Made by a program: the position numbers and the translations under genes. Source: Candidatus Omnitrophota bacterium (GTDB taxonomy: Bacteria > Omnitrophota > Omnitrophia > Omnitrophales > Aquincolibacteriaceae). From it: DNA of 64,000 nucleotides. Numbering within the stretch: position 1 is the first letter of the stretch; every line of letters starts with the position of its first letter. The notes under the pieces are model-generated. The model ran no database searches. It had not been told where the DNA came from and worked only from the letters and a program-made list of their open reading frames with translations. This document shows positions 33,828 through 64,000 of this stretch, one piece after another. Where the stretch lies: the NCBI GenBank assembly GCA_043732705.1, contig JAYTHE010000011.1:71605-135604 (forward strand), given 5' to 3'.

Positions 33828-33862
33828 GAATTTAATTAGGTCCTGTTTTTAGAGAACTACGT

Positions 33863-34270
33863 TTAACTCACTTGTTGGGCTTCAGTTTCGGCCGGAAGCG
33901 CCGCTTGCTTGACCAATTTTAATTGATTGTCATACTTGAAAAGACGCCCGCCGATCAACACAACAAACGATCCGTCTCCGAAAGCGGTAACAACGGGTTG
34001 ATAAGATTGTGCACCCATCATCCGTGAGCCGGGAGGCATCATCCCCATCATAGAATAAGGCGGGTAACTGTGCCGAGCTGCACGATTGGCTGCGGCAAGT
34101 CGAGCTCGCTCCGTAGCAGACATCGGCATTGATATTGCGGCAGCAGGATCAGTCTTGGCCTCGACAGTCTTAGCCGGATCCGTTTTTGTCGGCGTTTCAG
34201 CAGCCAAAGCGGAACATGCAAATACAAAGCAAAATAAAAAAAACAACGAGACCGTTTTTTGTATATTCAC
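33863..34270 (-). CDS. Small secreted Met/Pro-rich protein (135 aa) with signal peptide and GTG start.
   Basis: GTG start at 34268-34270 sits 4 nt after a strong SD, AGGGGGA (minus strand of 34275-34281). N-terminus NIQKTVSLFFLFCFVFACSALAAE is signal-peptide-like. It begins 66 nt downstream of the gene A stop on the same strand. Confidence 0.6.
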   Translation of the reverse strand: MNIQKTVSLFFLFCFVFACSALAAETPTKTDPAKTVEAKTDPAAAISMPMSATERARLAAANRAARHSYPPYSMMGMMPPGSRMMGAQSYQPVVTAFGDGSFVVLIGGRLFKYDNQLKLVKQAALPAETEAQQVS

Positions 34271-34284
34271 AATATCCCCCTGTG
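34271..34284 (-). promoter_or_regulatory. Shine-Dalgarno sequence for the 135-aa ORF.
   Basis: Minus strand reads ACAGGGGGATATT-GTG, i.e. AGGGGGA 4 nt before the GTG start. Confidence 0.5.
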
Positions 34285-34336
34285 CTGAACGCAGAGCACT
34301 ATACCATAATTTAAATATTTTTAAACACCGATCAGA

Positions 34337-37300
34337 TTAAGCGGCTGATTTGACTTTTTGGACGGCAAGCATTTCGTCTATTAACGATTTTAGCATTTCG
34401 CGCAGTGCACTATAGTGCATGATATTTCCTGGCTTCACGTCCCCACGCAATAAGTGTTCAAGAAATTCTTCCTTACCTAAAATTGCCGCAAGATGACCAG
34501 CCATAGCTGGTCTTTCTGCGGACTCATTTACCTCCACCTGAATAACGTTGGCAGTTTTTCCAAGTTCATCGAAAAATTTATCTTCGGCCGAGTGGGCAAC
34601 AATGCCTCCCAACACCAAGAACGTGGTGTGAATCATACTACCGCGTAGCTTAATCGCTTTTTGCGTTTCCGCGAGCGCAGTTAGACTGCGAATTACTTTA
34701 TAACCAAGCTCTTCGTAGCTCTTGATCAAATCCGGTGACGCGTCCGACAAAGCATAAACAAATGTAGCTGTATTCAACCGTCCAAACATAGATTGAAGAG
34801 GATGGGATGCAGTTCCGCCTTTAAGAAATCCTTCAATGTCTTCTACGACTGACAGACTTGTTGTTTCTGTTCCAAGCAGATAGAGCAAACGATCGATTGT
34901 GTCAATATTTTGGGCTGTAAATTCATTTTGATCAATAATCATCCCTAGCTTCGTCGCATAGTAAGCAAGAATTTCTTGCAAGATATCCCGGTTCCGATCT
35001 GTATCTTCATGACCATAGCGACTGTTAAACACGGCGTAATAAGTTGCAAGTTCCGGAATTTGTTTAATACGTATGAGCAATGCTCTAACATTTTCGTCTT
35101 TTAAGTTTGCATGAACAGCTTCATGCAATATTCCTGCTGCAATTAAATTAACATTTTCCGGGGTGAGTTTTTTGCCGTTGATCAACGTCTGCTCTCGATA
35201 CTGCTCCAACAATCCCGTCGCGTCATTATCAACATAGGCCATCACTTGACCATTTCTAAAAATTTCATCATGGTCAAGTGTTCCCGGCTGAATCACTTCG
35301 AACTTATCTTTCGTGGGCAATTCCTCATCTCCCATCAATACCCCTAAGATTGACCCCTTAGCGTTAGAACGAGTTGCCTCAGCCTGCGCCCAAGCCAAAT
35401 TAAGCAACTCTTGCGAGTCAGATTCAACGGGGATTGTCGCTATGGGGGCAGACCCTGCCCGATCTTCCAATCGAACGGATCCATCAGCGCCATGGTTAGC
35501 GTTCGACACACCTTGAGACAAGCCCACACCATCTCTCAACTCAGAACGTTTGGTCCCGTCACGCATCTGATCCCCGGTACCCGCAGGAAGCTCCACAGAA
35601 GTCGCTTCAACCACTGCAGCTTCATCGGAAGTTACCCCGGTAACAACAGGTTTTGTTAAGTCAATAACGTAGCTTTCAACTTTTGTTCCGCGCTTCCAAC
35701 CTTCCATCTCCTTGCCTTTATACACTTCAAAGCCCACCTTATCCTTGTTAGTCAACGAGGACCCTTTCAAGGTTGTCCCACGAATCCGTGCCACGCCAGC
35801 TTGCCGCAATACCTCTAATGCAGTTTTTTGAAAAGCAGCTCCTAAACCACTACCTCTGAAATCTGGACTAACAACAATGTCATCAATCATATAATCACTA
35901 TCATCAACCAGAATAGTCGCAAATTCCGCATCAATCGGTGATTCATTATCAGCAATAAAGTGGCGTGCTTTTAATTCTGGTTTTTGTTTCCAAACAGACT
36001 GGTAATTTTTTACGGGACTCGTGCTGATCATTGCCGCCACATCCGAAGGATCCGACGGATTTAACCATACAAAAATCTCACTCCCACCCTTACTTACACT
36101 GTTCTCAATATTCGCAAGAATACCTATAGCAGCAGCGCGCGCTTGCGCAGGAGACTGCCCTTCTTTTAACGCATCTTTTTCATGTAAGGCAAGCATGCTT
36201 GCATACATTTCACCTTGGGGAGAAAAGTAGCTTGAAAGCTCCGCTTCTGTTTTAAGCGTGACAAGATTAAATGAATTTGGATCTGATTTAGCAGCCTGAG
36301 CTCTCTTTGCAGCATTTTTTACTAAACCAGGCAATTTAAACTCACTGTCCTTGTTAAATAAATCATCGTGGGGGGCCGCATCAGAAATAGTTGAAAGCAA
36401 GTCAAAAAGCTTGCCCCTGCCTTCCGCACCGGTCGCGCCAAAATTTGTTGCCGCCTCTTCCATAAATTGGCTAAACTGACGAAGCTCAATACCCACCTGA
36501 TCTCTTATTGATCGCCGCTCCGAAGCACTCATTTTTAAATGCTTCATCAAGAAATTGGGTAAATAACCTCTTTCCAGATTATCACGGAGATCGCGTAAGA
36601 ATGAAACCGCAAGAATGGCATCTCCTTCTCGCGGAATTTGCGCTAAATGAGATTTATATTCACGAATAATTTCACGCCAAACATAATTTAATCGATCTGC
36701 GCGATTCGCGCGCGCCTTGTCCGGAGAACTCTGCAGAGGATCAATTAAGTGATTATATTCATGCGCCAAAGTTTCTTTTTGATCAACGCGTGCTTTCCGA
36801 GTCATTCTTTCAACCGGACTCATGAAAATCATGCCGCCCATCTTATTAAAGAGAGAGTTCTTGCCAAATTGCCACTTCATATCTGCCCAACCCAAAACAC
36901 CTGAATCGTGAGTTGCGGCAACAGCAAAAGTGTCCCAACCTTTACGTGTTTTGAAGCGAACTGACACAGCTTCTCCACTCAAATCCATTGGAAGCATGTT
37001 TCCATTCTCATCTTTCAAGTCTTCAAGTCTTGTCAAAACAATTTCAGCCTCTTTGAGCATATCTGCAGTAACTTTGGGAGCCATAGACTCCCCGGCATCA
37101 TTAAGTCTAGGGTCATCAGAATCACCATTTACAAGATCTGCTATCTTTTGACGAAGCGCTTCAGAATCAGCATCATCTCCTGACAAAACAACATACTTTT
37201 CTATCGTTTTATCAATTAAGGTCCGCGTCTGTGGTGTTAAACCTAACTGCACGATAAGATCGGCAATGCCAGACTGAATGGCATCATGACTATCCTTCAT

Positions 37301-40300
37301 TCTTTTCTTAAATTCAGCTATCTTACCCGCTGTTTCAGGGTCCTTTAAAGTTGCGTTAAGACCTTCTTTTTTCTCTTCATCGACATTGGGTTTCTCCTGA
37401 TAAACGTCCATCATCCACACCAAACCACGCACCCACTTCTCAGCATACTCCATGCCCTTACGCTGCATTTTCAGAGGGTCATTATCGAGCAACGCCTTGA
37501 GTTCTTTAATTTCTCGCGCGCTCACAACATCTTCCCCGCGCTTAATATTTTCAGGCTTTTTATTCTCAGCAGCTTTTTGTTTTAAAATTTCTTTTGCTAA
37601 TTTTTTATCGCCAGATTGAACCGCATTCAAAAACCTCATCAACCAACGCGACATATCCACACGCGCAAAATATTTATCCTGCATTTCAAAAGTTGAGCGT
37701 ACTTTCCCCATATACCAATTTTGCAGACGTTGTAACTCACTCAGCCCGCCTGATTTAAGGGAACGTTCGTTAGCCTGTAATTCTTTCATACGTAAAAAGT
37801 TATCACGAGTTTCCTTGTCAAGCGCACCTAACCGCGCTTTAAAGCCTTTAATCTCCTCTGTCTCGCGCCCGAGCGACATAAACTTTTTAATATTTTTCTG
37901 GCTTAATGCCTTAATTAGATTGGTGCGCTGTTCTTCCAGGCTCTTTAATTTCTTTGATAACCCCATGATCTCTGAATGTGATTTTTGATTCAAATCAACC
38001 ATAACAGAAATCTCATCCTGATACTTTTTAAATGGATCATCGTTAAGATCCGCTGCTTCACGATAGGTTGACATCTTGCGCTGATAGAGTGGGTCCATAT
38101 ATTTCAACATTTTTCCAAGCCCCGAATAAATATCTTGGCGTTCTTGAGAATCAGGCGGTAACGCGCGCAAATAAAGCGCTGCAAAGTACTCCGCAAAAAA
38201 GTCACGGAAAATTTGTCCTTGAGAGTCCGAACCTTGTTTCTCAAGATGCTTTTCAACCTGCTGAAGCATTTCAAGCTGTCGTTTACCGGCGGCTCCTTGC
38301 TTCTTCAATGCAGCAATTTGCATTTTTAAAATTGGCTTAATAACCGCATCTTCGTCATGCTCCATCGTTTCATGCAACATAAACGCGCGCAATACAGAAT
38401 TCACTTCTTCGCGCGATCCACCATCCACAAAAAGCATATTCGCTTTTAAGAGCAAGTCTTTATTAAAGAACATCGTGTCACCACGCATATAAGCCGCCGT
38501 GTCAGCATCGGGATCACTTCGCTTTTTAATTTTTGCAATTGAATGCGCGCCACGAGCCTTATGGGCGCACTCTTGATCCGTCTTGCATTGATCCGCTGAC
38601 TTAAGTAGTGTTGCCTTTGTTTGTATAGCAATTTCATCAAGCAAGTCTTCGCGCGCAGCACCTAATCCAAATGCGGTTAATAAGTTTGCCCACTCCAAAA
38701 CATGCCCAGGGTGATTTTTTGACGAAGCCAGCCTTTGAATCTCATCTTCAAATGCTTTTTTCTCACTATCAATTTCATCCTGTGGCTTAGCCCCCCAAGT
38801 AGCTGAAGCAGTCTTCAATTTAGTTGCCATATCCCTGTAATCTTTTAAGAAATCTGCTTTCTTACTCTGACGCGCCGTGCTTTCAATAAGGTTTGGTGAA
38901 TAATTTTCAACGTTATACGCCCTAGCTAAAATTTGAATGGTTTCAGAACCCAAACCTTCCATTGAACTCCATAAGGCATCCAAATCCTGAGTAGTTACTG
39001 TCCGACCATCGCGAACTATTCTTGCTAAAACAGTGTCTGCATGAGCAACCGCCGTTAATTCACCGACGAGCAAATCACTCAAATCACCTCTCGCGCGCAT
39101 GGCCAAATATACTTGCTCACTCAGTGGTACCGCATTTTTATCAATTGCAAGTAGCGCGGCATTAAACTGCTCAAAATTTGGATTTTCAATTCCCTGTTTT
39201 GCAAGTTCATCCATAATAAGCGGAACGGCTACAGGCCCTTGTCCAAACTGTTTCCCCGCCGCAATCGCGATGGTTGCATAGGCGAATTGCTCCTTGGCAA
39301 GGGGGTCTGATACTATCGTCGCTTCAACCCGCTTCTTAAATTTTTCAGTTAATCCCGAACTCAAATCATCGCTTGGCTTTCCAATAAAAAAACTGGATAG
39401 ACGCAAACGCACTTGAACAAACCAATAAGGTAAAACATATTTAAATAGCAAGCCAAAGCGCGTTTTAAATGCCTTCGGACCGAATCCGCTACCATCAATC
39501 GTTATTTGGCGATCCAAAACTTCTTTAAGAGCTTTAGTCGCATCAGCACCAAGCATTGATGCGGGTTGAGCAGCTAAAATCTTCATGATCCTAGGTGAAA
39601 GCAAAAACAAGCTCGCGCCAATCACAATAATCGCTGCGCCGATTCCAACTAAGGTTAAAACCCCTGCTACGAATCCAAGAGCACTACCTCCCACCAAACC
39701 AAACCCAGCCAGCTTAACAAATCCAACGGCAAAAGCGGCTGCAGCCGCAAATAAGATTGATGCGCTCTTCATGCTTGGAACCGACACCATAGATTTAAAT
39801 ACAGATGTGAAAATTGACGCAACAAACTTTGCAAATCCTTCACGCCATTTACCCACTCCGCGCGTCTCGTTAAGGGCCTCTTGAGCAATGTGCGCAAAAG
39901 CTGCAAGAGGTTTTTTAGGAATTCCTTCTACTGTTGACTTAAGGGTTTTGAGATATTGCTCCACCGTCATCGTCGAGTACGCCGATCCAACAGCCGCAAC
40001 AAATTTATCGTGGTATTTTTCCATTCGGATCAAATCTTCATCCGAAAATCCTTGTGCCTGCAACAAAAGAAGATTGAATGTACTCGGATCATATTTATTC
40101 CCATCAAGAAGATATTGAATAGTATCTGTACGATCAAATACGCCACCCGGCATCCAGGTGCTCAGTAAGTCACGAATACCATTAATTAAATGTCCAAGCC
40201 CAGGAATACGAACTGCCAAAGCTACGAGGCTATTTTGCCAAACCCAATTATCAAAGAAGGCTTTTGTTTTTTCCCGAACAGATGAATCTAAACGACTGCT

Positions 40301-58300: not shown

Positions 58301-61300
58301 GGTTGCATTACCAATTCCAAAGCCGCCTAAAGTAAGACCCGCACTAATCGTTCCGTCGAAAGCGATATTAAAAAATGAATCAGCCTGAATAAGGTTGCCA
58401 GTCAAATCATAAGTCACCTGATTTAAAATTCTGGTTGATCCGTCTTGGAGCAGCCCTTTTTGCTGCCATGTGGTTGTCCCATCTGCGTTTTTAAATTTGA
58501 TTAACGAAGTCGCTGTTAGCGTGGTGCCACGATCCGTTTGATTACCTGAGTTATTAAAGTTGGATTGAACCCCCATCAAATGCCCTGACGAACTATAACT
58601 GTAACTATCAGTACCGCCGCGATCATTCAGCCTTGATTCGAAAACAACTTTGCCGGCGTCATTGACAAGCTGATAACCGGTCGCCGTGAAATGCATTATT
58701 TGACCCGTGGACTCATCTGTGGCAATCACGTTGCCTGCTTTATCAATGCGGCCGTTGTTTAGATTAGTTTCTTCTACTGTATTACTTTGTTCATTGATAA
58801 GTTCGGACTTATCAACCACCACCCGGCTGCGGCCTTGGCTATCGACTTTCAAACGCGAAGTAAATTTTTGATAATGTCCTTCATTATCTTTGATCGCATT
58901 AAACGTCACGCCTTTAAAATAACCTTGCGCTCCATTTTTAATAAAATCGAGCGTCCCCTGGTCCAGGTTGCCACCGCTACCGGTTTCTTGAAGTTTGTCA
59001 AACCCAGCCTTTCTGTCAAATGCATGCCAATCCCCAGCAATTCCATACCCAGCATCAACTAAATTATCAATCATTTGCCCTGTCCATATTGTTTCCTGAC
59101 CATATATAAGGCCATTCATGGGTGAAGCCCCGCCGTAAACACCCGCGCAATGTAAGTAATTGTAACCACTACATGTAAAATCCGGAATCCTGAGCGGATC
59201 CTCAAGTTGTTTCTTATAGTCATCAAGTGATTTATTCGCATCGTCCTTGATCTTTTGGATGTCGGCAATTTTTTGGTCATATTGCACTTTAAGGGAAGCC
59301 AGTTTATTCGCAGCGGTATTACGCGCCTTGTTCTCAGATTCATTCAGTTTATCGCGAGTATGTTCCCAAGTTTTTAACGCCTGCAATTTTTTGGCCGCCG
59401 CCCACGTCTGCGCATTGTCATAGCGACCTGCGCCGACACCCACTTTAATATCTAAATACCCCTCGGCCATGACCTGCGCAAATGCCGCGTCATAAGTCAA
59501 TCCGTGCAATTGCCAATAAGTAACACGTTCATTAACAACTCGAACCCCCTCGTCGGCATCCGCATTCGCATTATCAAGATTTTGCTGCGCTTCGTCGCGC
59601 TGCTTTTGAATAGAAGCTAAAGTTTTATTTAAATTAGTAACGATCGGATCTTTTTGTTGTTTGTACCAAGCATCAATCAACGCTTTCATGTTGTTATATT
59701 GAGTCGAATTGTTCGTCCTTAATGTGGCGATGGTAGTAAGTTCATCACCGGCGCGTTTTGTTTCGTTATAATCCTTGATGATATTGTCGTAGTCACGACG
59801 ATAGGCATCCCACAAATCGTTATGTTGCTTAAGATAGTCCTTAGCCGTACTCGTTTTGGGCCCTTGAAAATACTGTGAAAAATCAGTAAATGCGTAAACC
59901 TGCGCGGACAAGCTTGACCCCACCGCACTGTAGAAGCTTCTGATTTGGGGGTAAGACTCATGACAAATATCGCCGGCGTTAGAAAGACAGTCGGTGATTT
60001 TTCGGTATTCCATATCTTGGTCTTGGGCTTTCTTAAAAAGTGCTCCCATCTTTATTTTCCAGGCATCCACGATTTCTTTTGTTGTGTCACCCTTATTGAT
60101 GTCCTTTAATGCAGGATCGGAGTTGTCGGCATTCATTGTTGCGTACCCAAGATAATATTTTAGTTCAAGTCTTTCCGCTTGCCAGCCGTTTCCAAAATAA
60201 TTTGGTACCACGTCACCATTTGCATCTTTATTATCAACGCAATTTTTACCGTCCGCGTCACAATTTTGTAAAAAGCGATCTATCGTCCAATCCTTATCGT
60301 AAAGGCCGTTCTCATCCTGAAAAATAGCGCGCTCGCGATAGAAGGTATTGATCGCTTCTTCCAAGCCGCCGGCGTATTCATCCGCATGCGTTGCGGCCTT
60401 ATTAATATCTTTTTCCAGGCCCAAGAGCCTTGAATTATCAAAAACTAAATCAGCCGTATTGGTGGGATAAGCGACCGGCAATACGACATTCGTTTCATAG
60501 TTATCATTTTTGCCAATCAAACTGTTAACTTGCGCCCTGGCAGCGGCACTCTTGGCACCCTTTGCATTTCGACCGGCTATATAATCTGCCTGCAATGTCG
60601 CTGTCAATGTAGCTGCAGCTTGCTGGCATATCGGGAGACCACCACCAGCCCCATCACAATGATGCGCAACATTAACAGTCTGATAAGCAGCATTTGCGGC
60701 ATCATCTTTTGATTGTGTGTCCTGATCGATAAGAGCATTATCCGTTTTATTCTTTTTTGCGATAACATCGACTTGGCTGTTTAAGCTTTGAACTTGTGTG
60801 TCAATCGCCTGAATTTGAGAAATCATTGACTGATAAGCGGCGATGGACTTATCGTAATGGTCTCTTGTATCTTGATTGCGCTTTTCAAAAGTGTCTTTTT
60901 GAAGTGCTGTTTTGAGCTCATTCAATGCTGCAATGTACTTTGTGAGCATCGCGTTGGTTTTAAGACCTGCCCCCGTAGTCAGCCGATCAACATAAGCCAA
61001 TTTCGAGTCAATAATGTCGATTTGATCCTGGCGATAAGGGCCTGTACCCCCATAATACCGGCTGGGGTCATTCCTTTCGGCAGTCAGCTCAGCAATTTTT
61101 TCTTGAACGCCTGCAATCCGATTTGCTTGGCTGTAGGAAAGATATATTCCGTCCGCGCTCACAGGTACTGCAGTGCAAAAATTCGGAGTTGTTCTGCAAT
61201 CATAACCATATTCTCCGATTTGATACTCGTTCCAATTCGAGCCCCATGTCGAGAGGTACCATTTCTGATCGTCTTCGGCATCCTTTTTATCATCGGTAAA

Positions 61301-63997
61301 TGCCTTAGCCCAATCGGTTTTGGCTTTCGTAATATAAGCAGTTGCGGCATCCGACAAATCTTTGTAAGTCGTATCACTCATGTCAATAATATCCGCAACG
61401 AGTTGCTCTTCACGGGTATTAAATTGAGCGTAATAGATACCTTGATCCGCGTAATACGAGGCGTAAGTGTTGTCTATTTTTTGAACCAACAAATCCATAT
61501 CATGTGTCCAAGGTGCCCAAAGATCTTTTTCTTGGCGCGTAATTTCGCCCGTAGCGGAAGTTTTAGTTTGGCCTTGCACAACACCGTAGGAAATTGAGTA
61601 AATTTCTTTTGTTTTAGAATCGTATTTGACGCGAATAGTCGCTTGGCTCGTATTTTGAGCATCGGCATAAATATCCACACAAATGCTTGTGCTGCCGCAT
61701 GTGTAGGTTCTACGATTCCAATATTGAGATCCTTCTTCATCCTTGTTGTCATTAGTTTGCGCTTCCAAAATTGAAATATCTAAAAATTGACCGGCGCCTT
61801 GTTGGTCATACCCACGCGTATGAATGGTGGTAATAGAGGTCGCACCATAAGTGATGCTTTCGGTAATGTCAGGATGATATTTTGTTTCGTTCCTACTCGT
61901 GTCAGTTTGCTTGTTGCCTTCATCATCATAGGAAATCGTCGTGGTCTTGGAGGTACTATGGTCCGGATTGCCGTCAGGTTGAGACCATTGCTCCGTATCA
62001 GTTGTTGTAACAGTCGGCGGATTTTTATTGTTATCTGTATCCACTCCATGAGTCTTTGTGTAATGTCTGTTTCCATTAGAATAAAAATCTGTGGTACTCG
62101 TTGAGTCTATTTGTACACCATGGGAATCACCTGTCGTTCGGGCTACTTCTGAAACTGTAACAGTGGCATAGCCGATCAACCCATCATTTCCGCAATTCGG
62201 GGTCCCATTTTTACAAACCGGTGTGCTTACATACTGGGTCGTTGTAACCGTATCCGTGCCACTCGGATCATGCGAGGTTGAAACAGATAAAGTAAGGTTG
62301 CCGTTTAAATAAGTTGACGTTGTTTCACTCGATGATCCGGCGGCAACAACAGCCGATGAAGATCCGGAAGTTCCATCTTCAGGTCGGCCGTCCTTATAAG
62401 CCTGTGTGTTCGAGTAGGCCTGACCTCGGTCATTCGTTCCCATTGAAGCCACGAGAATAATTTCGCCACGGTCATTGTAATCTGTTTGCTCTAAATAGGC
62501 TGCCGGGCTATTTCTATAATCGAGCCCTACTTTTTGATTTTGCAGAACGCCGTCTACGTCATAACTGCTCTCCCCGCGGAAATCGGTAACTTTTTCCAAT
62601 GTCCCATCATTGTTAAACTCATTGCGGTAACCGGAACTATACCCTTTAAGCGCCAGGCTTCCCTGCTCCGTAAAATAATCCACATTTTTATTTACGGAAC
62701 TGAAATGGTGCTTAATGAAGTCATATTGCGCCCCGTCGGTCGTGGTGTACATATCGACATTCACCGGTCTTGTTTTACCTGTTGGAAGATAAGTGGCGTC
62801 AGCTGTTGCAAAATTAGCATCCGATTCATAATGATAGGTTGCGGTGGTGAAATGAGATTGGTCAGTATCTTCCGTGTAATTGGCCAAGACACCAAAAATT
62901 GTTTTTGAAACAGTCCGATCAATACGATCCGGCTCAGTCGAGCGATAGGTAGAAAGCGTCTTTTGTTGAACCGAGCCGATTTGCTTGCCCACTTCAAACA
63001 TCAGCGAAAGCGCATAATCAATTTGGTCGCCGTTTGCGGTATAGGAGTTTCTTGAACTCATCCAACCACTTGCTCCGACCACTCCCGCTTTAAACGCGCT
63101 TGTGGAGTCATATTGCGCTTGGACACTGCCGATTATTTTTTTCCAACTGTCGGCGGACATGAGAATGTCAGGAATATCAGTACGATAAGTAATGGTAGTG
63201 GCACCAATCACGACCCCTGTTGAATCATATTGAACACTACCGACTGATTTTTCTGACGCGTCAAAAAATGTTTTTTCCTTAATAATTCCGGAGGGCGTCA
63301 CGGTTTGAACAAAGTTTTCAGAATCAAGCGCGATAGTGCCACCACTGCGGTATGTCTCTGTGCGACGCAGTCTAGAGTTTATATTAACATATTTTGTGAT
63401 CGTCTTCACACTTCCGTCTTTACGGTAATTTTGAGCCGCAGCCGTTTTTCCATCGATGGAAAGATAGGTCGTAGATAATTTGTAATCAAAATACTGGCTT
63501 TGAACGTTCACGTCAGACATGTCGAAAAATACAGTTCCATCAAATGCGGGAGTATTTTTTAGCTGGTAAGTATCGACGCGCACAGTTTGGTAATGACTGT
63601 TCCAAATCTGCATTGAGAGATTGAGCACCGTTCCGTTCGGACGCAACGACACCGAGTAAAGCGCGACATCCGCTGCGGCATGATGCACGTAAAAGGTTCT
63701 TGAAGAAACGTAGGATTTAGGCTGGCCATTAGCATTGTAATCGGTTGTCGCGCTTTGCGTTAAAAAGCCGGTCACATTATCATAAGTGAAATCCGTGCGA
63801 GAAACCGTGCGGCCATGCGCAATCGAAACGGATGATTCTCTCGCGCGCGTTTGGTTTGTAAGCACATTGCCGGCCACGCTGACTGTTTCGTAAATATCAA
63901 AACCCTGATGTGAAGAAGCCAAAACCTTACTATTCGCCGTATCAACCAGCACAAGCTGGGATGTCGCCAAAGAGTTAGCGGTGCATGTTCCCGACAA
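34337..63997 (-). CDS. Giant multidomain membrane protein, >=9,886 aa, 5' end beyond window end. Beta-rich N-terminal region; ~9 tandem ~110-aa repeats; multi-pass TM block; coiled-coil; SF2 helicase-like ATPase; HExxH motifs; GNAT acetyltransferase.
   Basis: Single 29.6-kb ORF in the supplied track, ending at TAA 34337-34339 (minus). Domain motifs are read from the supplied translation; see domain features. Confidence 0.9.
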   Translation of the reverse strand: MSGTCTANSLATSQLVLVDTANSKVLASSHQGFDIYETVSVAGNVLTNQTRARESSVSIAHGRTVSRTDFTYDNVTGFLTQSATTDYNANGQPKSYVSSRTFYVHHAAADVALYSVSLRPNGTVLNLSMQIWNSHYQTVRVDTYQLKNTPAFDGTVFFDMSDVNVQSQYFDYKLSTTYLSIDGKTAAAQNYRKDGSVKTITKYVNINSRLRRTETYRSGGTIALDSENFVQTVTPSGIIKEKTFFDASEKSVGSVQYDSTGVVIGATTITYRTDIPDILMSADSWKKIIGSVQAQYDSTSAFKAGVVGASGWMSSRNSYTANGDQIDYALSLMFEVGKQIGSVQQKTLSTYRSTEPDRIDRTVSKTIFGVLANYTEDTDQSHFTTATYHYESDANFATADATYLPTGKTRPVNVDMYTTTDGAQYDFIKHHFSSVNKNVDYFTEQGSLALKGYSSGYRNEFNNDGTLEKVTDFRGESSYDVDGVLQNQKVGLDYRNSPAAYLEQTDYNDRGEIILVASMGTNDRGQAYSNTQAYKDGRPEDGTSGSSSAVVAAGSSSETTSTYLNGNLTLSVSTSHDPSGTDTVTTTQYVSTPVCKNGTPNCGNDGLIGYATVTVSEVARTTGDSHGVQIDSTSTTDFYSNGNRHYTKTHGVDTDNNKNPPTVTTTDTEQWSQPDGNPDHSTSKTTTISYDDEGNKQTDTSRNETKYHPDITESITYGATSITTIHTRGYDQQGAGQFLDISILEAQTNDNKDEEGSQYWNRRTYTCGSTSICVDIYADAQNTSQATIRVKYDSKTKEIYSISYGVVQGQTKTSATGEITRQEKDLWAPWTHDMDLLVQKIDNTYASYYADQGIYYAQFNTREEQLVADIIDMSDTTYKDLSDAATAYITKAKTDWAKAFTDDKKDAEDDQKWYLSTWGSNWNEYQIGEYGYDCRTTPNFCTAVPVSADGIYLSYSQANRIAGVQEKIAELTAERNDPSRYYGGTGPYRQDQIDIIDSKLAYVDRLTTGAGLKTNAMLTKYIAALNELKTALQKDTFEKRNQDTRDHYDKSIAAYQSMISQIQAIDTQVQSLNSQVDVIAKKNKTDNALIDQDTQSKDDAANAAYQTVNVAHHCDGAGGGLPICQQAAATLTATLQADYIAGRNAKGAKSAAARAQVNSLIGKNDNYETNVVLPVAYPTNTADLVFDNSRLLGLEKDINKAATHADEYAGGLEEAINTFYRERAIFQDENGLYDKDWTIDRFLQNCDADGKNCVDNKDANGDVVPNYFGNGWQAERLELKYYLGYATMNADNSDPALKDINKGDTTKEIVDAWKIKMGALFKKAQDQDMEYRKITDCLSNAGDICHESYPQIRSFYSAVGSSLSAQVYAFTDFSQYFQGPKTSTAKDYLKQHNDLWDAYRRDYDNIIKDYNETKRAGDELTTIATLRTNNSTQYNNMKALIDAWYKQQKDPIVTNLNKTLASIQKQRDEAQQNLDNANADADEGVRVVNERVTYWQLHGLTYDAAFAQVMAEGYLDIKVGVGAGRYDNAQTWAAAKKLQALKTWEHTRDKLNESENKARNTAANKLASLKVQYDQKIADIQKIKDDANKSLDDYKKQLEDPLRIPDFTCSGYNYLHCAGVYGGASPMNGLIYGQETIWTGQMIDNLVDAGYGIAGDWHAFDRKAGFDKLQETGSGGNLDQGTLDFIKNGAQGYFKGVTFNAIKDNEGHYQKFTSRLKVDSQGRSRVVVDKSELINEQSNTVEETNLNNGRIDKAGNVIATDESTGQIMHFTATGYQLVNDAGKVVFESRLNDRGGTDSYSYSSSGHLMGVQSNFNNSGNQTDRGTTLTATSLIKFKNADGTTTWQQKGLLQDGSTRILNQVTYDLTGNLIQADSFFNIAFDGTISAGLTLGGFGIGNATVDPAAYERNKTKEIDSIRANVVPTQELRNRGSLFGIETKDSFTGKITTQWLGIGSTQFSEKIKVNEDMNGHIQVYVTLKDGTVISLGAKDGVSADTAVKNILHLGTVSTETDVRGGTFNQLKIDGLYSLVGDAFTGAKLTAAGFDKFNGEAIRADTNILRGESGFIIYRAATPLDTDFRHDSGLVNFNNLADANSYIEQIPDLISFSTFGRMADGTAFANQSFRVINDGKTLVGKISAADASGNIVSQLVNDAFSDALQHSESFAAAGIDKIHISIDKNGALNQESIDLFGLAIFSTAVTVSGRDGVFIVRQNQANNGALQIGRYESNIKNGNVRQGTLYHSGIYVTDVNGNRLVGFDNPAEFKVAVGAEIAAAGLSDKNFLVTPAGKRFLVNNGGADGNITVDLYNQSAQINLLQIDAQGNLTGHLIMRTLGKWENALNGSLSDKVWGSAALTAANHAKVDEIGGEFTQKLVVSTQNGSIVASNSNADSLYALAIKAFGSFGIRDIAAFTDTQGQVIYESLNGSVKLTGADFLLRGAGTNAGLYFAQVGQTGVKDSIDQVAAFLTGNKLADFVQSNVGQQTQGLNQSQYAVTSTAVLGDAFQQQNGAFLQGLEILINNAGLNSTTFFGVSGNALFSFNSSNLNDFINPLTSIVARGLGVNGDRQYIFFNSGEARLTVNRFNSITKNFETVNYSVKNGTLQAISLETHILGAANDVVREAVLIEQALNGVFAGIDSGAAFQFRGADGVTITAANWNLALVNAKAGFVASEHNGAQLLGVGFTHIGNVAITANSDWVKGNDGSLAFVIASAGEIVNPNNFTSAVDLSAIAGQNVFLESVNTFALANDTTVKAILFNSDHSLAGAYSFGGNEVTANLYSRKDAAGNSINISAKSKTFDQLQKLIDAQTNVITQNNSNLTTEGGASTFRNEIAKLIGPGQTILSGQSIIVTSFSLSGEARYVTGIFAFADGKEAAFAATSIDFANGRINTIDKNGREINIKTHETDFVEGKLVNVERKIQQNQFIGDLPAGLTTAETQEITAALIQHVLVNNDGSIFSPITINMQGGILNTYTTPELERQKQVVVVVDQHGVDGQVLKAGTYRYSEDRKTLNTVTESMLNKFNLTSLAKADTARVGDTLFQITIGTDGNDLLTQVLSGLGIQSKQLLMRNGEFFALAAFDGVNLEAYATPNMIKNKEFAVAGDWLKSNDREFISAGVYNWKENKVTGRVNQAMANTFNVGKLDLVNQLNTTTDTLLNVELSIVGADPSNGLNSMLAILNGWGIQNQQSVLRNGEFFARATIIGGELKAYATPDMLFNGQVAVAGGWLKEKDHREVSAGVYNFKDMKTSSTLTQLMVNKFNLGKLAEANKLNILTDSLLTSTVTIDGANSNNSFNLVLGVLAGWGIQNQQSILRNGEFFGRAVVVDGELRAYATSNMLSNGQIATTELHGSKPGEMLQAGVYSFKVVKETEVLVEERLDGLSIGGLVKADQVRAGDNLEITTVLANFLVTGMLAGMGIQSQAIITRGGQFFARATLANGTLEAYATPNMLFNGQIATTEIHGSKPGEKLDAGVYNFKLSINPKTVTQEMLVNGFVLADLAEVNQIKVGDVIEAQIVKADQLLTNVLAGFGMMNQSIITRNGEFFARAITVDGELRAYATANMLYSGQIATTELHGKAGEKIGAGVYSFSILKSPSQTMTAEMLKKFNLDGLLVTNQLKEGDKLETQTIVAHALLLDALAGFGIQSQTIITRNGEFFARASVLGGELKAYATPDMLFKGQIATTELRDTKTGRTLEAGVWNFDITKKTSTLNAEIVGLFNKLNGLLGADQVKAGDQLESQTVNAHAILLGVLSGVGIQSQSIITRDGDFFARASTVNGELKAYATPNMLYLGQVAVIQTRKDAEGKNISVADIDHFKFKRVDRALEVGEATNGLNVTDRMVGEILKAGSELQGILSGWGIQSSLSVQRNGDVLYNLRTLDAGSSLFMAFDKLGNLGGFLASDGFTPFNLIPKSETGVAHPFTATGNNAIDKTQVGYSRFVSLHGLDDSGKAKTFGLFLSDTGNIQAMISSMGTKTLDEAHFWHGIVGVNIDFFQTGGGVDSLDILYEQRQAGIFIKTDLSAEKVSEAIDLRGKRAVIFHNETMRDKHLDVVVSAVPLNGGDKQSFGMIADELIVSNSTISRDGKVLPEIGFYLSGGKLVGSILDERLQYFQNGNAYVQLFNQFSDGQFRPESSFYTVSKNGQFFGYSTASGNPMPVAYDPNQTAAWNINQQRKVNNYAQFLLPTKVPGESQDIRISLEPTVYPGGSARGSEYDTKILALKGMQFVASPLLGGDGPTLFFNADQFQMINGEIQAVGDHLGDGVHAAFFGKNGFENVYVNTDDGVHGGWTASQSRNASSAVKVSRLTYDDNGVLDQKFYGLASNIVNPTTKEIERFILLSDSAIIKGQVTGALDVNGQALEASFANAAYIFKSPDGNDWKEGQKFSKVSVANKEKYQESLKSQSYLFVDTHGDAVAQFRGLESAEFKEITRSQGFTAALLNAVSFAFTDDGLRIFKQQVGGAQSGHEVVKFFKPDSTNFAVGFERKDGKIILDPAAAVSQKIAHAVQNGIQEIKTANQNNQLGGVNLDGAIQITYLNGDLVVLNNKLDLLFESYSVSRTSSYSIAAKNDSAKTKQVDLVNEVIYFDNGSTYTRRINKTEISVDGVVSSQSSTAIYNAQYHDNVNPSLSWAWLADDAALPLNQQYHLLNQQHDGFNDFVFTAGKTGAFVRSNATGLYVPLTPYDTDGTSVKIVGNQVWVTYTGSLIGKQETLLKGLVVKYNKDNMIEPAGYQLQLDRWMSTARGFETLDFSSSIADLAKMSDLGGYNIKVDNGTLQINLSRTSQITIGLNEHGQLTMIKLLDMSTHTFAYDDAFRMQITYDSHGQVLNIIENSLLTGALGMSATKMFFVHHFNDGVYGSSENFFAGAFGLGDKIDQLSTGEKWFYGITLFVGAVAGIAAAAGFGFAAAGVGTTMTKVVAVSSVKALLLGGVQVFIVPGFIAAVTGLILDINVLKSGGLLWMAGFALPAVTATFIGPTILSSLAGIIGFVTGFAADIMVGRGWDANSFTIQTMKIISLVGMFVGILSSIGRSIGQKLTLMAMEKGGVAAAEKLTLGQALRAAAGKANFIGAANWGAGKTLAYGLWFAAERPLAILGLELTGLGTGRGIWNMVKLSIFFAGAATVGLGYLTGIDEFKNVGLIVMGAIAAVSLFVKGVEKILAARAATKLAPAAGAKAVELGLFGRIGAALQGKVTFNSITNAIVLGSALIWFYANNFSGESELSESIKKGVLLIGGLALGLRAGLFMFGNPIKLFAGFTGTIANRIFNSVQIIGVLTAWTGAILFGIGKFKTFQGQDGAWYESWGSSLLKWGLGLQVGSIFTARLFNKIAIMEGSLAAQVSLKLKDMLIKKSVTETINGLWSSAVGSIMFFKAFPVFESLFGLKHLMQWITGNEIDITVDGEAIHGWGSNFRLAYMKFKHEFFNAEGWTSSRLVHDIAMGFLLHVFGVTYSRGFAGELSNAGGLTKALWRILSPKSYERFIRNNGEKALFGVYGFVDNMLMFNVVMNGITLTQNYIIGKDPTAVDGQSGGKLNELPDMIMAFLTLPVLLGVAVLENNAAGNSTKVFFTDLSKSAILLVPQGDHNSHAVAVKEFIMMRHAAIAERIEKGNWSAEQRERLEKMKENGTYADAHALRKFLAEEAPAGEPVSPVVAATPEGSLPPLLRSDFSGVILRAVMIEASEAMGLRVTNWDHLVELQAKLQEKSEAPSSSAAPESQKTADATKLVHPAFETFQKAQKDLEEAHLGGDVHTIQEMRAQLNLAFEGVITHINGIRSAQLIGPDKSQSSPPAPGRSEALGVIEGAAKAAHPAEEAYTKALKAYNDAVAASVPQDWANKFYQNLVNARAEYFNQVLKPHLTENIDLGFNQSAPVKPTAAGQPTRTIEFKIGSKEGFRQALEKLGIRSSIEASAAMETLLGKEPVDAGVIGVFDFIFANVVAMYVSGVISLPGVASTNATDEVLQVVSRLTDSWRLNTLAAEKPDESTTTPQVQKKERVSTSVAELLGVDLTTGQYADGKKSMLPTDFLKLDARLLNESYLEPLLTIVMRSLNAGGKVPSILDNQTAKGIVEKISNAHARSEAPKVVDSPSKNAAAEKNAADKAGITTKPAEKRAQEPTKLQDARSEMFGQMDGRNVSGILLDGFYVIRSEKPASSPVRSDALAGKASSPASSGPSAPAKMLRKKNASEAGSVLTLREMLSSVRGWFSRKNKAESTESAKIEGEKAEAVLAVINGHTVILSMRTVELMALLEGAPRALIEVSGFNRKLDAHESLNLKIVHEEKTYSEKMTELGDKLEKAQSEAEKSIIKQRMELRTFEFEEQVNILKAAINELASYSDTRLAKEFSTVEEITNTLLIRALPALFDKYQEKGKEAKALIAEIQKKSEQKQQDESEMAELRKKLDTVKQELIKTQYLIEKNTSKLADFESKYESLISFVIDHGSLISKEDFADLDGRMKLFEQLQAVYFETDGQLKNAVQEKRNEIIRVLNSREGVDVMDAYDAAVKKKNKLGIRDATNQIRQMLELSGLKALSGGLREGEYGPITEERSGNNEERLINHLLLTTLHEFNLLSQWGFEEGNKIKKPTDKVIDRLELLRTGHGHLLGTESNSRVDRPASDYLGRGRSQFLAALGLEFGFDVSAGTGVGKTNAQVLGAAFWMANRHIHGGDRMALVLESSDPVLKMTKDEGVISRNALGLGVDFINANNFIAEGKQDFAGLKDAMLRNHDGVLVTDIFTKTHSYNNVDSAEARALLDYIARKIDRTVLDEAQFAAFSQTKAIIANGNRPEPVSPSMFIAGAKMVARLREEVKAGRLKQIFNEKEYIDKTTIATDKDPAARRAADEKVFYIDDQGTVFISKSAHEMIAEWKITDFARDPEISSFILGLYDEKSRMGFTLGVDANGYQKIVLKPSDEKYVYREQQSSDIPLQIASLARLIETQRGNPPERDRVLDRSELKIIDAQVKNIFGMETAKLSPADVSDKAPEAIKKELLDQKLNGFDASGEVNFDQLKKWFDIGSIGKLETKMGTPVQSNFGRGVVGLSATLPEYITLFTGNARMELGRSMPDLSWYKSRNRLSTQNYSADEKTFKDQVKDAVRKAQKNGHNYIFVVNKDLHAKWIEEALLAADMKINPNQIDKVHKETTAKELGDIAEGGENGNRYIIATERAGTGFDLARKLEASDSGNKLPTHVFAFDVQNYASHFLAQIIGRDRSNKGAVNLFYDSEALVKNLSDAIAGIRYDTFKGFLNRALIRAEEDRDLATKTTNNSDTSKLYDQRVEDLKRFITKLESLRGEGGADFSRTKLESVLRAEVGKDSSLIDLISLNVEYREALHQSQGAMAVVRTYAFDRFLMRGLRSLLELTSSDPSLKEEDKALRAIISKAESGKYSNERAILTENGVTGEEYVRNQLKTVIREVIGDRVEGTTKRVFQDSVFADLIKAGFKLEDLNVKFDVNSLEMIESALKDGGQLGFQLDAIKKENKTDGRYAIAHQQNGSVIGFAKTLILFGEFILTTHESRGLARAQQELYAQQKATQTSNPKTVEGDAEKAGVSADVIAGIRNASRGGWGQNFISSRVYNAVQFAKSFMGKVAGQGLFSPAVKMALQGVAAIANDADAEAQMNLGKSLVVNKTDPAATDPAIKALHDFANMGSDKTPTAAEINAALEGAIQVLMTLGLFDASVASNGEEMMRRLALFGGAVGLNNANIGTGFVWKAAAGILNSQYFKADLARFHRSLGGEISDRQQNVYTGRLKEEKRDIREAQTKMEGQAALRSAEDDLYRVLDSKRTRGGWWFSALTPLGQKFFSWNSWKVAILTAKYGPLSFERGENKWLTGTIATAVLAPEILLGFGALLPVAAVGLGIAATFGLSAALIGKQMFSWRGLAGVAALAAGTVALVVGLPVLVPIIASVAGGALLLSRFFSSRLDSSVREKTKAFFDNWVWQNSLVALAVRIPGLGHLINGIRDLLSTWMPGGVFDRTDTIQYLLDGNKYDPSTFNLLLLQAQGFSDEDLIRMEKYHDKFVAAVGSAYSTMTVEQYLKTLKSTVEGIPKKPLAAFAHIAQEALNETRGVGKWREGFAKFVASIFTSVFKSMVSVPSMKSASILFAAAAAFAVGFVKLAGFGLVGGSALGFVAGVLTLVGIGAAIIVIGASLFLLSPRIMKILAAQPASMLGADATKALKEVLDRQITIDGSGFGPKAFKTRFGLLFKYVLPYWFVQVRLRLSSFFIGKPSDDLSSGLTEKFKKRVEATIVSDPLAKEQFAYATIAIAAGKQFGQGPVAVPLIMDELAKQGIENPNFEQFNAALLAIDKNAVPLSEQVYLAMRARGDLSDLLVGELTAVAHADTVLARIVRDGRTVTTQDLDALWSSMEGLGSETIQILARAYNVENYSPNLIESTARQSKKADFLKDYRDMATKLKTASATWGAKPQDEIDSEKKAFEDEIQRLASSKNHPGHVLEWANLLTAFGLGAAREDLLDEIAIQTKATLLKSADQCKTDQECAHKARGAHSIAKIKKRSDPDADTAAYMRGDTMFFNKDLLLKANMLFVDGGSREEVNSVLRAFMLHETMEHDEDAVIKPILKMQIAALKKQGAAGKRQLEMLQQVEKHLEKQGSDSQGQIFRDFFAEYFAALYLRALPPDSQERQDIYSGLGKMLKYMDPLYQRKMSTYREAADLNDDPFKKYQDEISVMVDLNQKSHSEIMGLSKKLKSLEEQRTNLIKALSQKNIKKFMSLGRETEEIKGFKARLGALDKETRDNFLRMKELQANERSLKSGGLSELQRLQNWYMGKVRSTFEMQDKYFARVDMSRWLMRFLNAVQSGDKKLAKEILKQKAAENKKPENIKRGEDVVSAREIKELKALLDNDPLKMQRKGMEYAEKWVRGLVWMMDVYQEKPNVDEEKKEGLNATLKDPETAGKIAEFKKRMKDSHDAIQSGIADLIVQLGLTPQTRTLIDKTIEKYVVLSGDDADSEALRQKIADLVNGDSDDPRLNDAGESMAPKVTADMLKEAEIVLTRLEDLKDENGNMLPMDLSGEAVSVRFKTRKGWDTFAVAATHDSGVLGWADMKWQFGKNSLFNKMGGMIFMSPVERMTRKARVDQKETLAHEYNHLIDPLQSSPDKARANRADRLNYVWREIIREYKSHLAQIPREGDAILAVSFLRDLRDNLERGYLPNFLMKHLKMSASERRSIRDQVGIELRQFSQFMEEAATNFGATGAEGRGKLFDLLSTISDAAPHDDLFNKDSEFKLPGLVKNAAKRAQAAKSDPNSFNLVTLKTEAELSSYFSPQGEMYASMLALHEKDALKEGQSPAQARAAAIGILANIENSVSKGGSEIFVWLNPSDPSDVAAMISTSPVKNYQSVWKQKPELKARHFIADNESPIDAEFATILVDDSDYMIDDIVVSPDFRGSGLGAAFQKTALEVLRQAGVARIRGTTLKGSSLTNKDKVGFEVYKGKEMEGWKRGTKVESYVIDLTKPVVTGVTSDEAAVVEATSVELPAGTGDQMRDGTKRSELRDGVGLSQGVSNANHGADGSVRLEDRAGSAPIATIPVESDSQELLNLAWAQAEATRSNAKGSILGVLMGDEELPTKDKFEVIQPGTLDHDEIFRNGQVMAYVDNDATGLLEQYREQTLINGKKLTPENVNLIAAGILHEAVHANLKDENVRALLIRIKQIPELATYYAVFNSRYGHEDTDRNRDILQEILAYYATKLGMIIDQNEFTAQNIDTIDRLLYLLGTETTSLSVVEDIEGFLKGGTASHPLQSMFGRLNTATFVYALSDASPDLIKSYEELGYKVIRSLTALAETQKAIKLRGSMIHTTFLVLGGIVAHSAEDKFFDELGKTANVIQVEVNESAERPAMAGHLAAILGKEEFLEHLLRGDVKPGNIMHYSALREMLKSLIDEMLAVQKVKSAA
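35105..35135 (-). other. Second HExxH motif near the gene A C-terminus.
   Basis: AAGILHEAVHANLKDENV at ~35100-35150. Confidence 0.3.
35690..36010 (-). other. GNAT N-acetyltransferase core in gene A.
   Basis: DDIVVSPDFRGSGLGAAFQKTALEVLRQAG at ~35790-35880 matches GNAT motif A (R/Q-x-x-G-x-G/A). Confidence 0.6.
36740..36780 (-). other. HExxH motif (candidate zinc metallopeptidase site) in the gene A C-terminal region.
   Basis: ETLAHEYNHLIDP located at ~36740-36780. No third zinc ligand assigned. Confidence 0.35.
42400..44200 (-). other. SF2 helicase/translocase-like ATPase domain of gene A.
   Basis: Walker A FDVSAGTGVGKTNAQV (~44100-44135). Motif II DRTVLDEAQ verified at ~43742-43768. Motif III GLSATLP (~42905-42950). 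Helicase-C-like YIIATERAGTGFDL (~42545-42615). Motif VI AQIIGRDRSNKGAV (~42425-42470). Confidence 0.6.
47800..49420 (-). other. Multi-pass transmembrane block (~540 aa, Gly/Ala-rich hydrophobic helices) in the middle of gene A.
   Basis: Starts after ...DGVYGSSENFFAGAFGLG (verified ~49411-49470). Contains >=10 segments of 18-25 hydrophobic residues, e.g. WFYGITLFVGAVAGIAAAAGFGFAAAGV, LLWMAGFALPAVTATFIGPTILSSLAGIIGFV, IIGVLTAWTGAILFGIG. Ends near ...FFKAFPVFESLFGLKHLMQWITG. Confidence 0.6.
52300..55050 (-). repeat. About 9 tandem ~330-bp (~110-aa) in-frame protein repeats in gene A.
   Basis: Repeated unit ...GIQ[NS]Q[QST][SI][ILV]xRNGEFFARAxxxxGEL[KR]AYATP[ND]ML[FY]NGQIATTE[LI]HG... First copy LLMRNGEFFAL verified at 54782-54840. 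Last, degenerate copy SVQRNGDVLYNL at ~52380. The periodicity is also visible in the DNA (gcaaaaaattctcc... recurs). Confidence 0.75.
55051..63997 (-). other. N-terminal beta-rich, presumably extracellular region of gene A (Thr/Ser/Asn/Asp/Gly/Tyr-rich, Cys pairs).
   Basis: From the supplied translation: compositionally adhesin-like with no hydrophobic helices and scattered Cys-x(n)-Cys pairs (e.g. CRTTPNFC, HCDGAGGGLPIC, NCDADGKNC). The fold cannot be assigned by eye. Confidence 0.35.
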
Positions 63998-64000
63998 ACA

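Follow-up and report, generated by a model that had tools for sequence, protein, structure and literature searches.

The region examined is a 64,000-nucleotide stretch, referred to here as the window, of contig JAYTHE010000011.1 (positions 71,605 to 135,604 of the forward strand) from the Candidatus Omnitrophota bacterium assembly GCA_043732705.1. A six-frame scan with translation identified a giant open reading frame (ORF) on the minus strand, window positions 34337..64000, which consists of 9,887 stop-free codons followed by a stop codon at 34337-34339. The TTG at 63997 was not taken as the start because the frame is still open at the window edge, so that the true N-terminus lies beyond 64000, and the full protein is probably longer than 10,000 amino acids (aa). 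An exact-match search of metagenome contigs with the window end gave no match and no longer contig was recovered. Residues are numbered from the first in-window codon (aa 1), such that residue i lies at window position 64000-3(i-1); all features of the protein given below are on the minus strand. The initial annotation of this DNA, made from the letters alone, described a second giant gene of at least 9,886 aa encoding an apparent through-membrane mosaic in which adhesin-like repeats and a transmembrane (TM) block are combined with an SF2 helicase-like ATPase, HExxH motifs and a GNAT acetyltransferase. The length of the gene was borne out by the 9,887 open codons. The structural reading was also right, the ATPase within the mosaic being confirmed by fold-level evidence and by its conservation in relatives.

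The ATPase region, used as query in a word-index search, returned a single match, P0001, a protein with 38% identity from a Candidatus Omnitrophota metagenome-assembled genome (MAG). When 1.84 billion representative proteins were scanned with a two-sequence HMMER profile, 12 proteins were found, eight of them 2,823-5,849 aa long. Scanning a single genome for each GTDB species yielded 13 loci; the seven with a name were all Omnitrophota or Omnitrophica and the remaining six were labelled 'uncultured bacterium'. One further locus was obtained from JGI metagenome contigs. All related loci have the match inside a giant ORF, mostly running past the available DNA (815 to more than 7,361 aa), and sequence identity to the taxonomically named relatives is at most 40%. 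No phylogenetic marker gene is present in the window itself. BLASTP against the ORFs of the relatives showed a collinear core, aa 5100-8900, and a C-terminal domain at 24-43% identity. The conserved segments are aa 6540-7850, the ATPase with a helical extension, which is present in all relatives; a HETxE-motif region at aa 8280-8900; and a HExxHA C-terminal domain with a conserved last helix. Two relatives are complete, P0008 and P0009, at 3,661 and 4,402 aa, and both begin with a signal peptide and an ectodomain, which are followed by a single TM, the ATPase, a hydrophobic hairpin of ~40 aa and the C-terminal module. The first ~5,000 aa of the giant protein had no match in any relative by BLASTP or phmmer against their ORFs. 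As judged from these alignments, the core is conserved and the N-terminal region of ~5,000 aa is unique, a pattern of chassis versus payload.

The possibility was considered that the gene is non-functional, either an assembly chimera or a decaying pseudogene still open by chance. The N-terminal ~5,000 aa have no homologue anywhere searched, the bulk of the protein is Pfam-dark, and the supporting short-read contig is a single one from one sample. However, random sequence has about one stop per 20 codons, and an open frame of 9,887 codons is therefore not attainable by chance. The architecture is collinear with at least 13 independent loci and the catalytic motifs are strictly conserved. Furthermore, a Logan contig assembled from SRR23617244 is 100% identical to window 32998-43827, a span of 10.8 kb that runs from the ATPase to the end of the gene. 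An artefact is so improbable as to be negligible, and that reading was discarded on the strength of the identical independent contig and the collinear relatives. The giant ORF is a genuine gene.

The protein contains a DEAD-like SF2 ATPase core with two RecA-like domains at aa 6585-7215 (window 42356..44248). The motifs are Walker A, AGTGVGKT, at aa 6625 (window 44105-44128); DEAQ at aa 6750 (43742-43753; LDEAQ from 6749); SAT at aa 7024 (42923-42931), within GLSAT from 7022; motif V, IATERAGTGFD, at aa 7145 (42536-42568); and motif VI, QIIGRDRS, at aa 7187 (42419-42442). They are invariant in 10 family members. Walker A, DEAQ, SAT and QxxGRxxR motifs had been proposed at the outset; all are present and conserved in relatives, although motif VI reads QxxGRxR. 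Between motifs II and III there is an insertion of ~235-270 aa (aa 6771-7005, window 42986..43690), delimited by spacing relative to SecA and by invariant columns. The motif II-III gap is 274 aa here, compared with 182 aa in E. coli SecA. The insertion holds a family-invariant KPxD...QQSSD..LQIA motif and was modelled as a folded alpha/beta region with a predicted local distance difference test score (pLDDT) of 70-89. An invariant IG(K/R)LxTKMGTPxQ stretch was also noted directly before GLSAT (KLETKMGTP, aa 7004-7012, window 42965-42991). The program hhalign pairs KLETKMGTP with SecA motif III, KLAGMTGTA, and the true motif III equivalent is uncertain between this stretch and GLSAT. The ATPase is followed by a helical extension, aa 7290-7580 (window 41261..42133), which phmmer matched in 20 relative sequences, some of them duplicates among the P-proteins and locus ORFs, with E-values from 1e-15 to 1e-45. 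The extension is kept in every relative whose available sequence reaches past the ATPase. It has no Pfam match, SecA_SW included, and none was found in aa 7250-7800 at E<=10.

Sequence profiles recognize very little of this protein. In the whole protein the GNAT domain was the sole Pfam match above cut-off, leaving most of it Pfam-dark, and NCBIfam, PADLOC and PHROGs scans gave noise only. Pfam SecA_DEAD and SecA_PP_bind had no match at E<=10 in the giant protein and none at E<=1 in 10 members of the family. Helicase_C remained below cut-off (13.6 bits, E 0.083, versus 23.5), and the best E-value for DEAD was just 0.21, in one family member. Comparison of the ATPase with PDB sequences, both by phmmer and by profile, returned nothing meaningful and no SecA. 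The helicase motifs thus fail profile thresholds, one of two outcomes that the initial annotation had counted against its own reading; the other did not occur, since automated annotation placed the protein in no family. An anti-phage defence helicase was discarded as a candidate because the ATPase has no PADLOC match.

In a structural search with Foldseek, the five best matches of the ATPase model are all SecA structures, the top one at 4.7e-8, and the SF2 fold is confirmed at the level of the predicted fold. Profile-profile comparison was carried out with hhalign using two reference alignments, one of 11 SecA/SecA2 sequences and one of 9 DEAD-box sequences, both taken from annotated plasmid-collection records. 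Against the single E. coli SecA sequence the result was not significant and the alignment spurious. Against the SecA motor alignment, the family scored 47.6 (E 8.9e-5), compared with 18.2 for the reversed profile and at most 27.1 in 40 column shuffles. The first RecA-like domain (NBD1) scored 44.5 against SecA NBD1 (E 1.4e-6, probability 90%; shuffles at most 22.4), and NBD2 against SecA NBD2 gave a weak 21.0 (E 0.031). The score of the insert against the PPXD, 16.9 (E 0.13), fell under the shuffle maximum of 22.6. Against the DEAD-box alignment, the family scored 47.0 (E 6.8e-5) over 176 columns spanning motifs III-VI, that is NBD2, and NBD1 scored 34.3 (E 0.0032) over a 22-column Walker A patch only. 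SecA against DEAD-box, a reference pair of known relatives, scored 112.7 (E 9.8e-14). The relaxed alignment of the family with SecA is collinear through motifs V and VI. In these profile-profile tests the first RecA domain is nearest SecA and the second is nearest the DEAD-box helicases. We regard the ATPase as a highly divergent motor of the DEAD-like type that is laid out like SecA; its placement within the SecA family is not established.

The affinity of the second domain raises the question of whether the ATPase is strictly a nucleic-acid helicase, a membrane-tethered DEAD-box-like remodeller of RNA or DNA. Its substrate could be, for example, the giant mRNA while translation is coupled to insertion, or nucleic acids of the prey. 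This explanation is improbable. SecA structures fill the top five places in Foldseek, and NBD1 matches SecA, whereas against the DEAD-box alignment just the Walker A patch of 22 residues is aligned. The 274-aa gap lies where DEAD-box proteins have ~30 residues. Moreover, TM blocks flank the ATPase in every relative, no nucleic-acid-binding domain was found with Pfam, and related giants of the phylum are reported to carry Pfam-detectable SecA domains at the equivalent position.

The membrane regions were located with a Kyte-Doolittle scan. Membrane block 1, predicted from hydropathy and composition to be polytopic, is a Gly/Ala-rich region at aa 4875-5547 (window 47360..49378) with ~10 hydrophobic segments, 13-15% Gly and 10-15% Ala. 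A Gly/Ala-rich multi-helix block had been annotated here with a length of ~540 aa; the block exists, but it is ~670 aa long. By BLASTP and phmmer, three relatives, P0002, L004 and L009, share its C-terminal two thirds (aa 5102-5704). An isolated hydrophobic segment at aa 5909-5940 (window 46181..46276), a possible TM helix, is not conserved in relatives. A second block, absent from the list of the initial annotation, follows the ATPase in two parts: block 2a, aa 7813-7901 (window 40298..40564), has two hydrophobic stretches of ~41-43 aa, likely two hairpins, and block 2b, aa 8077-8144 (window 39569..39772), is a 68-aa hydrophobic stretch that may hold 2-3 helices. Most relatives examined have a hydrophobic stretch of 37-55 aa after the ATPase. 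In total, hydropathy gave 13 hydrophobic stretches in the two TM blocks together and one isolated segment, or ~15-20 helices. No transporter family in Pfam or NCBIfam matched the TM blocks.

The region between the TM blocks contains low-complexity Pro/Ala/Ser linkers and an E/K/L-rich stretch at aa 6250-6500. The coiled coil that was expected after the hydrophobic block is indeed present, as a short heptad-like stretch at aa 6360-6414 (window 44759..44923) detected by a crude heptad scan and by composition. The coiled-coil region also gave a weak match to LmuB, which is SMC-like (E 3.9e-4).

The last 1,740 aa of the protein contain several domains with metal-site-like motifs. The domain at aa 8496-8710 (window 37871..38515), defined by BLASTP, phmmer and MAFFT alignment, carries the conserved pattern DPxADTxAY..N..(F/Y)(M/L)xHETxE..QGQxFRD(F/Y)FAE, in which ~60 aa separate (F/Y)(M/L)xHETxE from QGQxFRD(F/Y)FAE; in the present protein the motif reads LHETMEH at ~8546. 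All seven aligned relatives have this domain, which has no Pfam match and, judging from its motif, may be a zincin-like metal site. It was not listed in the initial annotation and is conserved in more relatives than either the HEYNH region or the GNAT. The HEYNH motif (9080) lies in a region, aa 9029-9127 (window 36620..36916), that phmmer matched to L006 (E 1.8e-8), and it is also found in L014 as THEFTHILDPL. The GNAT acetyltransferase-like domain, aa 9255-9451 (window 35648..36238), has motif A, RGSGLGA, at 9382 and passes the Acetyltransf_1 (PF00583) cut-off marginally, with 21.9-22.1 bits versus 20.7. Among the relatives it occurs in L012/P0005 only, with 22.2 bits there and 34% identity.

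The last domain, aa 9531-9887 (window 34340..35410), was recognized from alignments as a conserved C-terminal domain with HEAVH (9626) and a downstream E..AY, and is gluzincin-like. E97, H100 and E146 are invariant in one alignment and H96, E97 and H100 in the other. The profile signal of this domain is SprT-like, 22.1 bits in L004, below the cut-off of 25.6. Its AlphaFold2 (AF2) model, with a pLDDT of 43, was too poor for use; PDB sequences gave nothing meaningful and a word-index search with the last 888 aa gave no match. HEYNH, GNAT motif A and HEAVH had all been predicted in this part of the protein, and each was found. The extreme C-terminus, ~20 codons at window 34340-34400, is conserved as ...E(I/M)xAxxxV(A/E)(V/A)SA-COOH. 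When P0002-P0009, L006, L009-L012 and L014 were compared, 12 of 13 relatives ended in [S/A]A-COOH, typically as ...QQVAVSA. This tail resembles an ssrA-type degron or a ligand of PDZ domains or tail-specific proteases.

The N-terminal region is different in character. All 18 cysteines of the protein form nine C-x4-9-C pairs, with partners spaced 5-10 residues apart: aa 1/6, 596/603, 768/774, 935/942, 1115/1125, 1247/1254, 1338/1346, 1610/1618 and 8472/8478. Eight of the pairs fall within aa 1-1618 (window 59147..64000), a region with no Pfam, NCBIfam or PHROGs match. They are followed by a Cys-free run of 6,850 residues, between 1610/1618 and 8472/8478, that includes the ATPase. The initial annotation had spread Cys pairs over ~5,000 N-terminal residues. 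The pairs exist, but eight are confined to aa 1-1618 and the ninth is far downstream. The positions and spacings suggest that aa 1-1618 is probably extracytoplasmic with disulfide-stapled loops. The pair 8472/8478, which bears on the membrane side of the C-terminal module, is not conserved in relatives.

A repeat array is located at aa 2943-3876 (window 52373..55174). A phmmer search of one unit against the protein, with alignment, gave nine copies of a ~112-aa unit at a period of ~112-122 aa, seven of them strong (39-213 bits) and two degenerate, in agreement with the nine-copy array of 110-aa repeats that had been described. The consensus is ..LLxxVLAGxGIQSQxIITRNGEFFARA..GELxAYATPNML.NGQIATTE..AGVYNF... 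The copies share 23-53% pairwise identity, and recent tandem duplication was therefore discarded as their origin. The repeat unit had no PDB profile match and no homologue in a word-index search of a 5.8-billion-protein index.

Long repeats at one end and putative enzymatic domains at the other might indicate a polymorphic-toxin or MARTX-like effector, an analogy drawn in the initial annotation, in which the repeats deliver and the C-terminal zincin and GNAT domains are toxins that enter a target cell. HExxH and GNAT domains are known as toxin modules, the tail is partly modular since the GNAT is found in one relative lineage only, and relatives of the organism are predatory or episymbiotic. 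However, a search of the giant protein for GGxGxD (RTX) and YDxxGR (RHS/YD) motifs gave 0 matches each, and no MARTX, RTX, RHS or type I or type V secretion system (T1SS/T5SS) adhesin profile in Pfam or NCBIfam matched it. PADLOC and PHROGs matches were limited to two weak, sub-threshold PADLOC ones. The polarity of variation is also reversed: it is the N-terminal end that varies, and conservation at the C-terminal end reaches the last residues, the opposite of polymorphic toxins. Finally, an ATP-dependent motor and an acetyl-CoA-dependent GNAT suit the cytoplasm of the producer. The analogy is left without support, and a toxin of this type is quite improbable.

The neighbouring genes were also analyzed. 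Window 1-32556 on the minus strand is occupied by another giant ORF (ATG at 32460), which encodes at least 10,820 aa, begins with a signal anchor and has its C-terminus off the window. It contains at least six stretches matching Pfam AAA_5 (dynein/MoxR-type) at approximately window 5866-12459, the best at 216 bits, and weak beta-propeller matches. BLASTP against the protein described above showed no similarity that would make the two paralogues. Residues 75-522 of the second ORF are similar to the N-terminal ends of P0008 and P0009, two of the relatives that have the SecA/DEAD-like ATPase. Two small minus-strand ORFs sit between the giant genes: one of 135 aa at window 33863-34270, with a signal peptide and a GGGGGA ribosome-binding site, and one of 153 aa at window 33366-33827, with an N-terminal TM helix. 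Both are also gene calls on the Logan contig, and Pfam matched neither of them. Downstream of related giant genes, in convergent orientation, there are minus-strand genes for VWA+TPR (BatB-like) proteins and apolipoprotein N-acyltransferase (Lnt), at L004:16861-18864, L009:19378-21714, L009:17319-18812 and L010:13237-14694. VWA/TPR proteins are the usual partners of MoxR-type AAA+ ATPases, the type seen in the other giant gene of the window. No type II secretion system (T2SS) or pilus genes were present in the short flanks examined at related loci.

Omnitrophota giant genes are among the longest known, and the open question about them is how a protein of tens of thousands of residues is exported and anchored. 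With moderate confidence, we favour the explanation that the protein is a giant surface-anchored Omnitrophota protein with its own SecA/DEAD-like translocation engine, a mechanism that we infer from the arrangement of its parts. The lineage-specific N-terminal region, at least 4,870 aa, would lie outside the cytoplasmic membrane as a surface fibre or attachment structure, a location suggested by its paired cysteines, the signal peptides of the complete relatives and the TM block that follows it. Polytopic membrane block 1 would anchor the polypeptide after the ectodomain. The chain would then enter a cytoplasmic module made up of the disordered coiled-coil linker and the divergent SecA/DEAD-like two-RecA ATPase with its large insertion. 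One or more further membrane hairpins would lead to the C-terminal module, with up to three HExxH/HExxE zincin-like sites, the GNAT and the ...VxxSA-COOH tail. The ATPase depends on ATP and the GNAT on acetyl-CoA, and both domains would for that reason be placed in the cytoplasm. The ATPase and the adjacent TM blocks could constitute a dedicated engine that threads the giant ectodomain, its own or that of sister molecules, across the inner membrane or maintains it there, and the C-terminal zincin-like and GNAT domains may process or modify the ectodomain. The conserved C-terminal core would be the chassis, and the ectodomain an exchangeable, fast-evolving payload for contact with prey or host.

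Several observations weigh against this explanation. Translocation by the motor and TM blocks, and processing by the zincin-like sites, are proposals read from the layout. Confidence measures for the ATPase model are moderate (pLDDT 61; predicted template modelling score, pTM, 0.37). Since the ATPase is made after the ectodomain, self-export in cis requires that it act post-translationally or in trans. The predicted number of helices in TM block 2 is two plus two plus either two or three, so that the C-terminal module could lie on either side of the membrane, and the Cys pair 8472/8478 could argue for an outside location of that module. The minimal relatives P0008 and P0009, with their single predicted hairpin, favour a cytoplasmic one.

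Synthesis of the motor after the ectodomain also keeps alive the possibility that the ATPase and the two TM blocks export other cargo, effectors or polymers directed at prey, and that the ectodomain merely docks the cell. Self-export in cis is awkward for a motor translated so late, and TM block 1, polytopic with ~10 segments and partly conserved, is more channel- or transporter-like than a simple anchor. West-Roberts et al. likewise allow 'secretion of ... accessory proteins' (bioRxiv 10.1101/2023.11.21.568195). However, the TM blocks match no transporter family. P0008 and P0009, with a single TM ahead of the ATPase and a single hairpin behind it, have too few helices for a channel. Moreover, no cargo genes are evident in the window, where the gene is accompanied only by two small ORFs and the other giant gene. 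Export of other cargo is unlikely, and a dedicated engine for the giant ectodomain is retained as the preferred explanation.

A bolder proposal can be put forward tentatively, although it is on balance doubtful. The C-terminal core of ~4,800 aa might be an autonomous, previously undescribed export-and-processing engine, distantly related to SecA, that forms a small family of its own (12 representatives among 1.84 billion proteins) and serves as a chassis for unrelated giant ectodomains. Such a core would begin with the polytopic TM block and a linker, continue with the DEAD-like ATPase, whose 270-aa insert would be of a non-PPXD kind, and a TM hairpin, and finish with the HETxE domain, the zincin-like domain and the ...VxxSA tail.

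Apart from this proposal, the sub-family is compact enough for its members to be compared, and the conserved membrane-ATPase-zincin core can be cleanly separated from the unique ectodomain. Minimal full-length members of 3.7-4.4 thousand residues are small enough for structural and biochemical study. Furthermore, Pfam-based surveys miss at least one clade of SecA-like motors, and published counts therefore likely understate how often giant proteins carry SecA-like domains.

The protein was compared with several known systems. In its great length, its surface-protein character, its repeats and the enzymatic domains at one end, it resembles MARTX, RTX and RHS toxins and the giant adhesins of T1SS and T5SS. 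However, the repeats and domains that define those systems are missing here, and internal polytopic TM blocks and an ATPase are foreign to them. With the DEAD-box proteins, for example E. coli RhlE, the ATPase shares the SF2 fold, and its SAT motif III and motifs V and VI align with theirs (E 6.8e-5). It differs in that NBD1 is unaligned beyond the Walker A patch, in the 274 residues rather than ~30 between motifs II and III, in leaving the Pfam DEAD and Helicase_C thresholds unreached, and in its position between TM blocks.

The likeness to SecA extends to the pair of RecA-like domains, along which motifs I, II, III, V and VI follow one another in identical order, to the large insertion that separates motifs II and III where SecA has its preprotein-binding domain (PPXD), and to motif V, which reads IATERAGTGFD here and IATNMAGRGTD in SecA. 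In contrast to SecA, the ATPase is embedded in a giant membrane protein between TM blocks. The Pfam SecA models failed, the insert has no detectable PPXD homology, NBD2 is nearer to DEAD-box proteins, and no HSD, HWD or C-terminal linker was found.

The closest resemblance is to the giant proteins known from tiny predatory or episymbiotic Omnitrophota (bioRxiv 10.1101/2023.11.21.568195; bioRxiv 10.64898/2026.06.07.730766). According to West-Roberts et al. (2023), every full-length giant has numerous TM regions. Most are said to have divergent SecA_DEAD and preprotein-binding domains without the scaffold/wing, the SecA-related domains come after TM anchors situated near the C-terminus, and GNATs are common. 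These authors propose export of the giant itself or of accessory proteins, and adhesion to prey and attack on its cell wall as functions of the ectodomains (bioRxiv 10.1101/2023.11.21.568195). An N-terminal signal peptide, often with a C39 or S8 peptidase, is also described for these giants (bioRxiv 10.1101/2023.11.21.568195; bioRxiv 10.64898/2026.06.07.730766). Nielsen & Lui (2026) catalogue 916 proteins of at least 10,000 residues, 94% of which have TM helices or a signal peptide and 93 of which (93/916) have a GNAT (bioRxiv 10.64898/2026.06.07.730766).

The present protein is, judging by its relatives, from the same phylum and shares with these giants the giant ORF, the many TM helices, the scarcity of detectable domains, the GNAT and the presence of a second giant gene alongside. 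A SecA-related ATPase with no detectable scaffold/wing comes after TM anchors placed towards the C-terminus, and the order of TM block 1 (4875-5547), ATPase (6585-7215) and TM block 2 fits the published layout. The differences are of several kinds. SecA_DEAD and SecA_PP_bind are undetected by Pfam both here and in 10 family members, and the conserved C-terminal zincin-like domains and ...VxxSA tail are not described for published Omnitrophota giants in the accessible parts of those reports. None of the GT, MT, GH, peptidase and NUDIX set of the Archaeovorin giants, and no dockerin or TSP3 repeat of the dockerin-type giants, was found with Pfam. The 'giant' threshold of West-Roberts et al. is more than 30,000 aa, and the length visible here is at least 9,887 aa with the N-terminus off the window. 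The initial annotation did not regard the protein as a member of a described family, a view that no longer holds, as the layout has already been reported for Omnitrophota giants and all named relatives are Omnitrophota MAGs. The protein reveals no new kind of system; it belongs to a known kind, the giant membrane proteins of Omnitrophota, of which it is a very divergent example.

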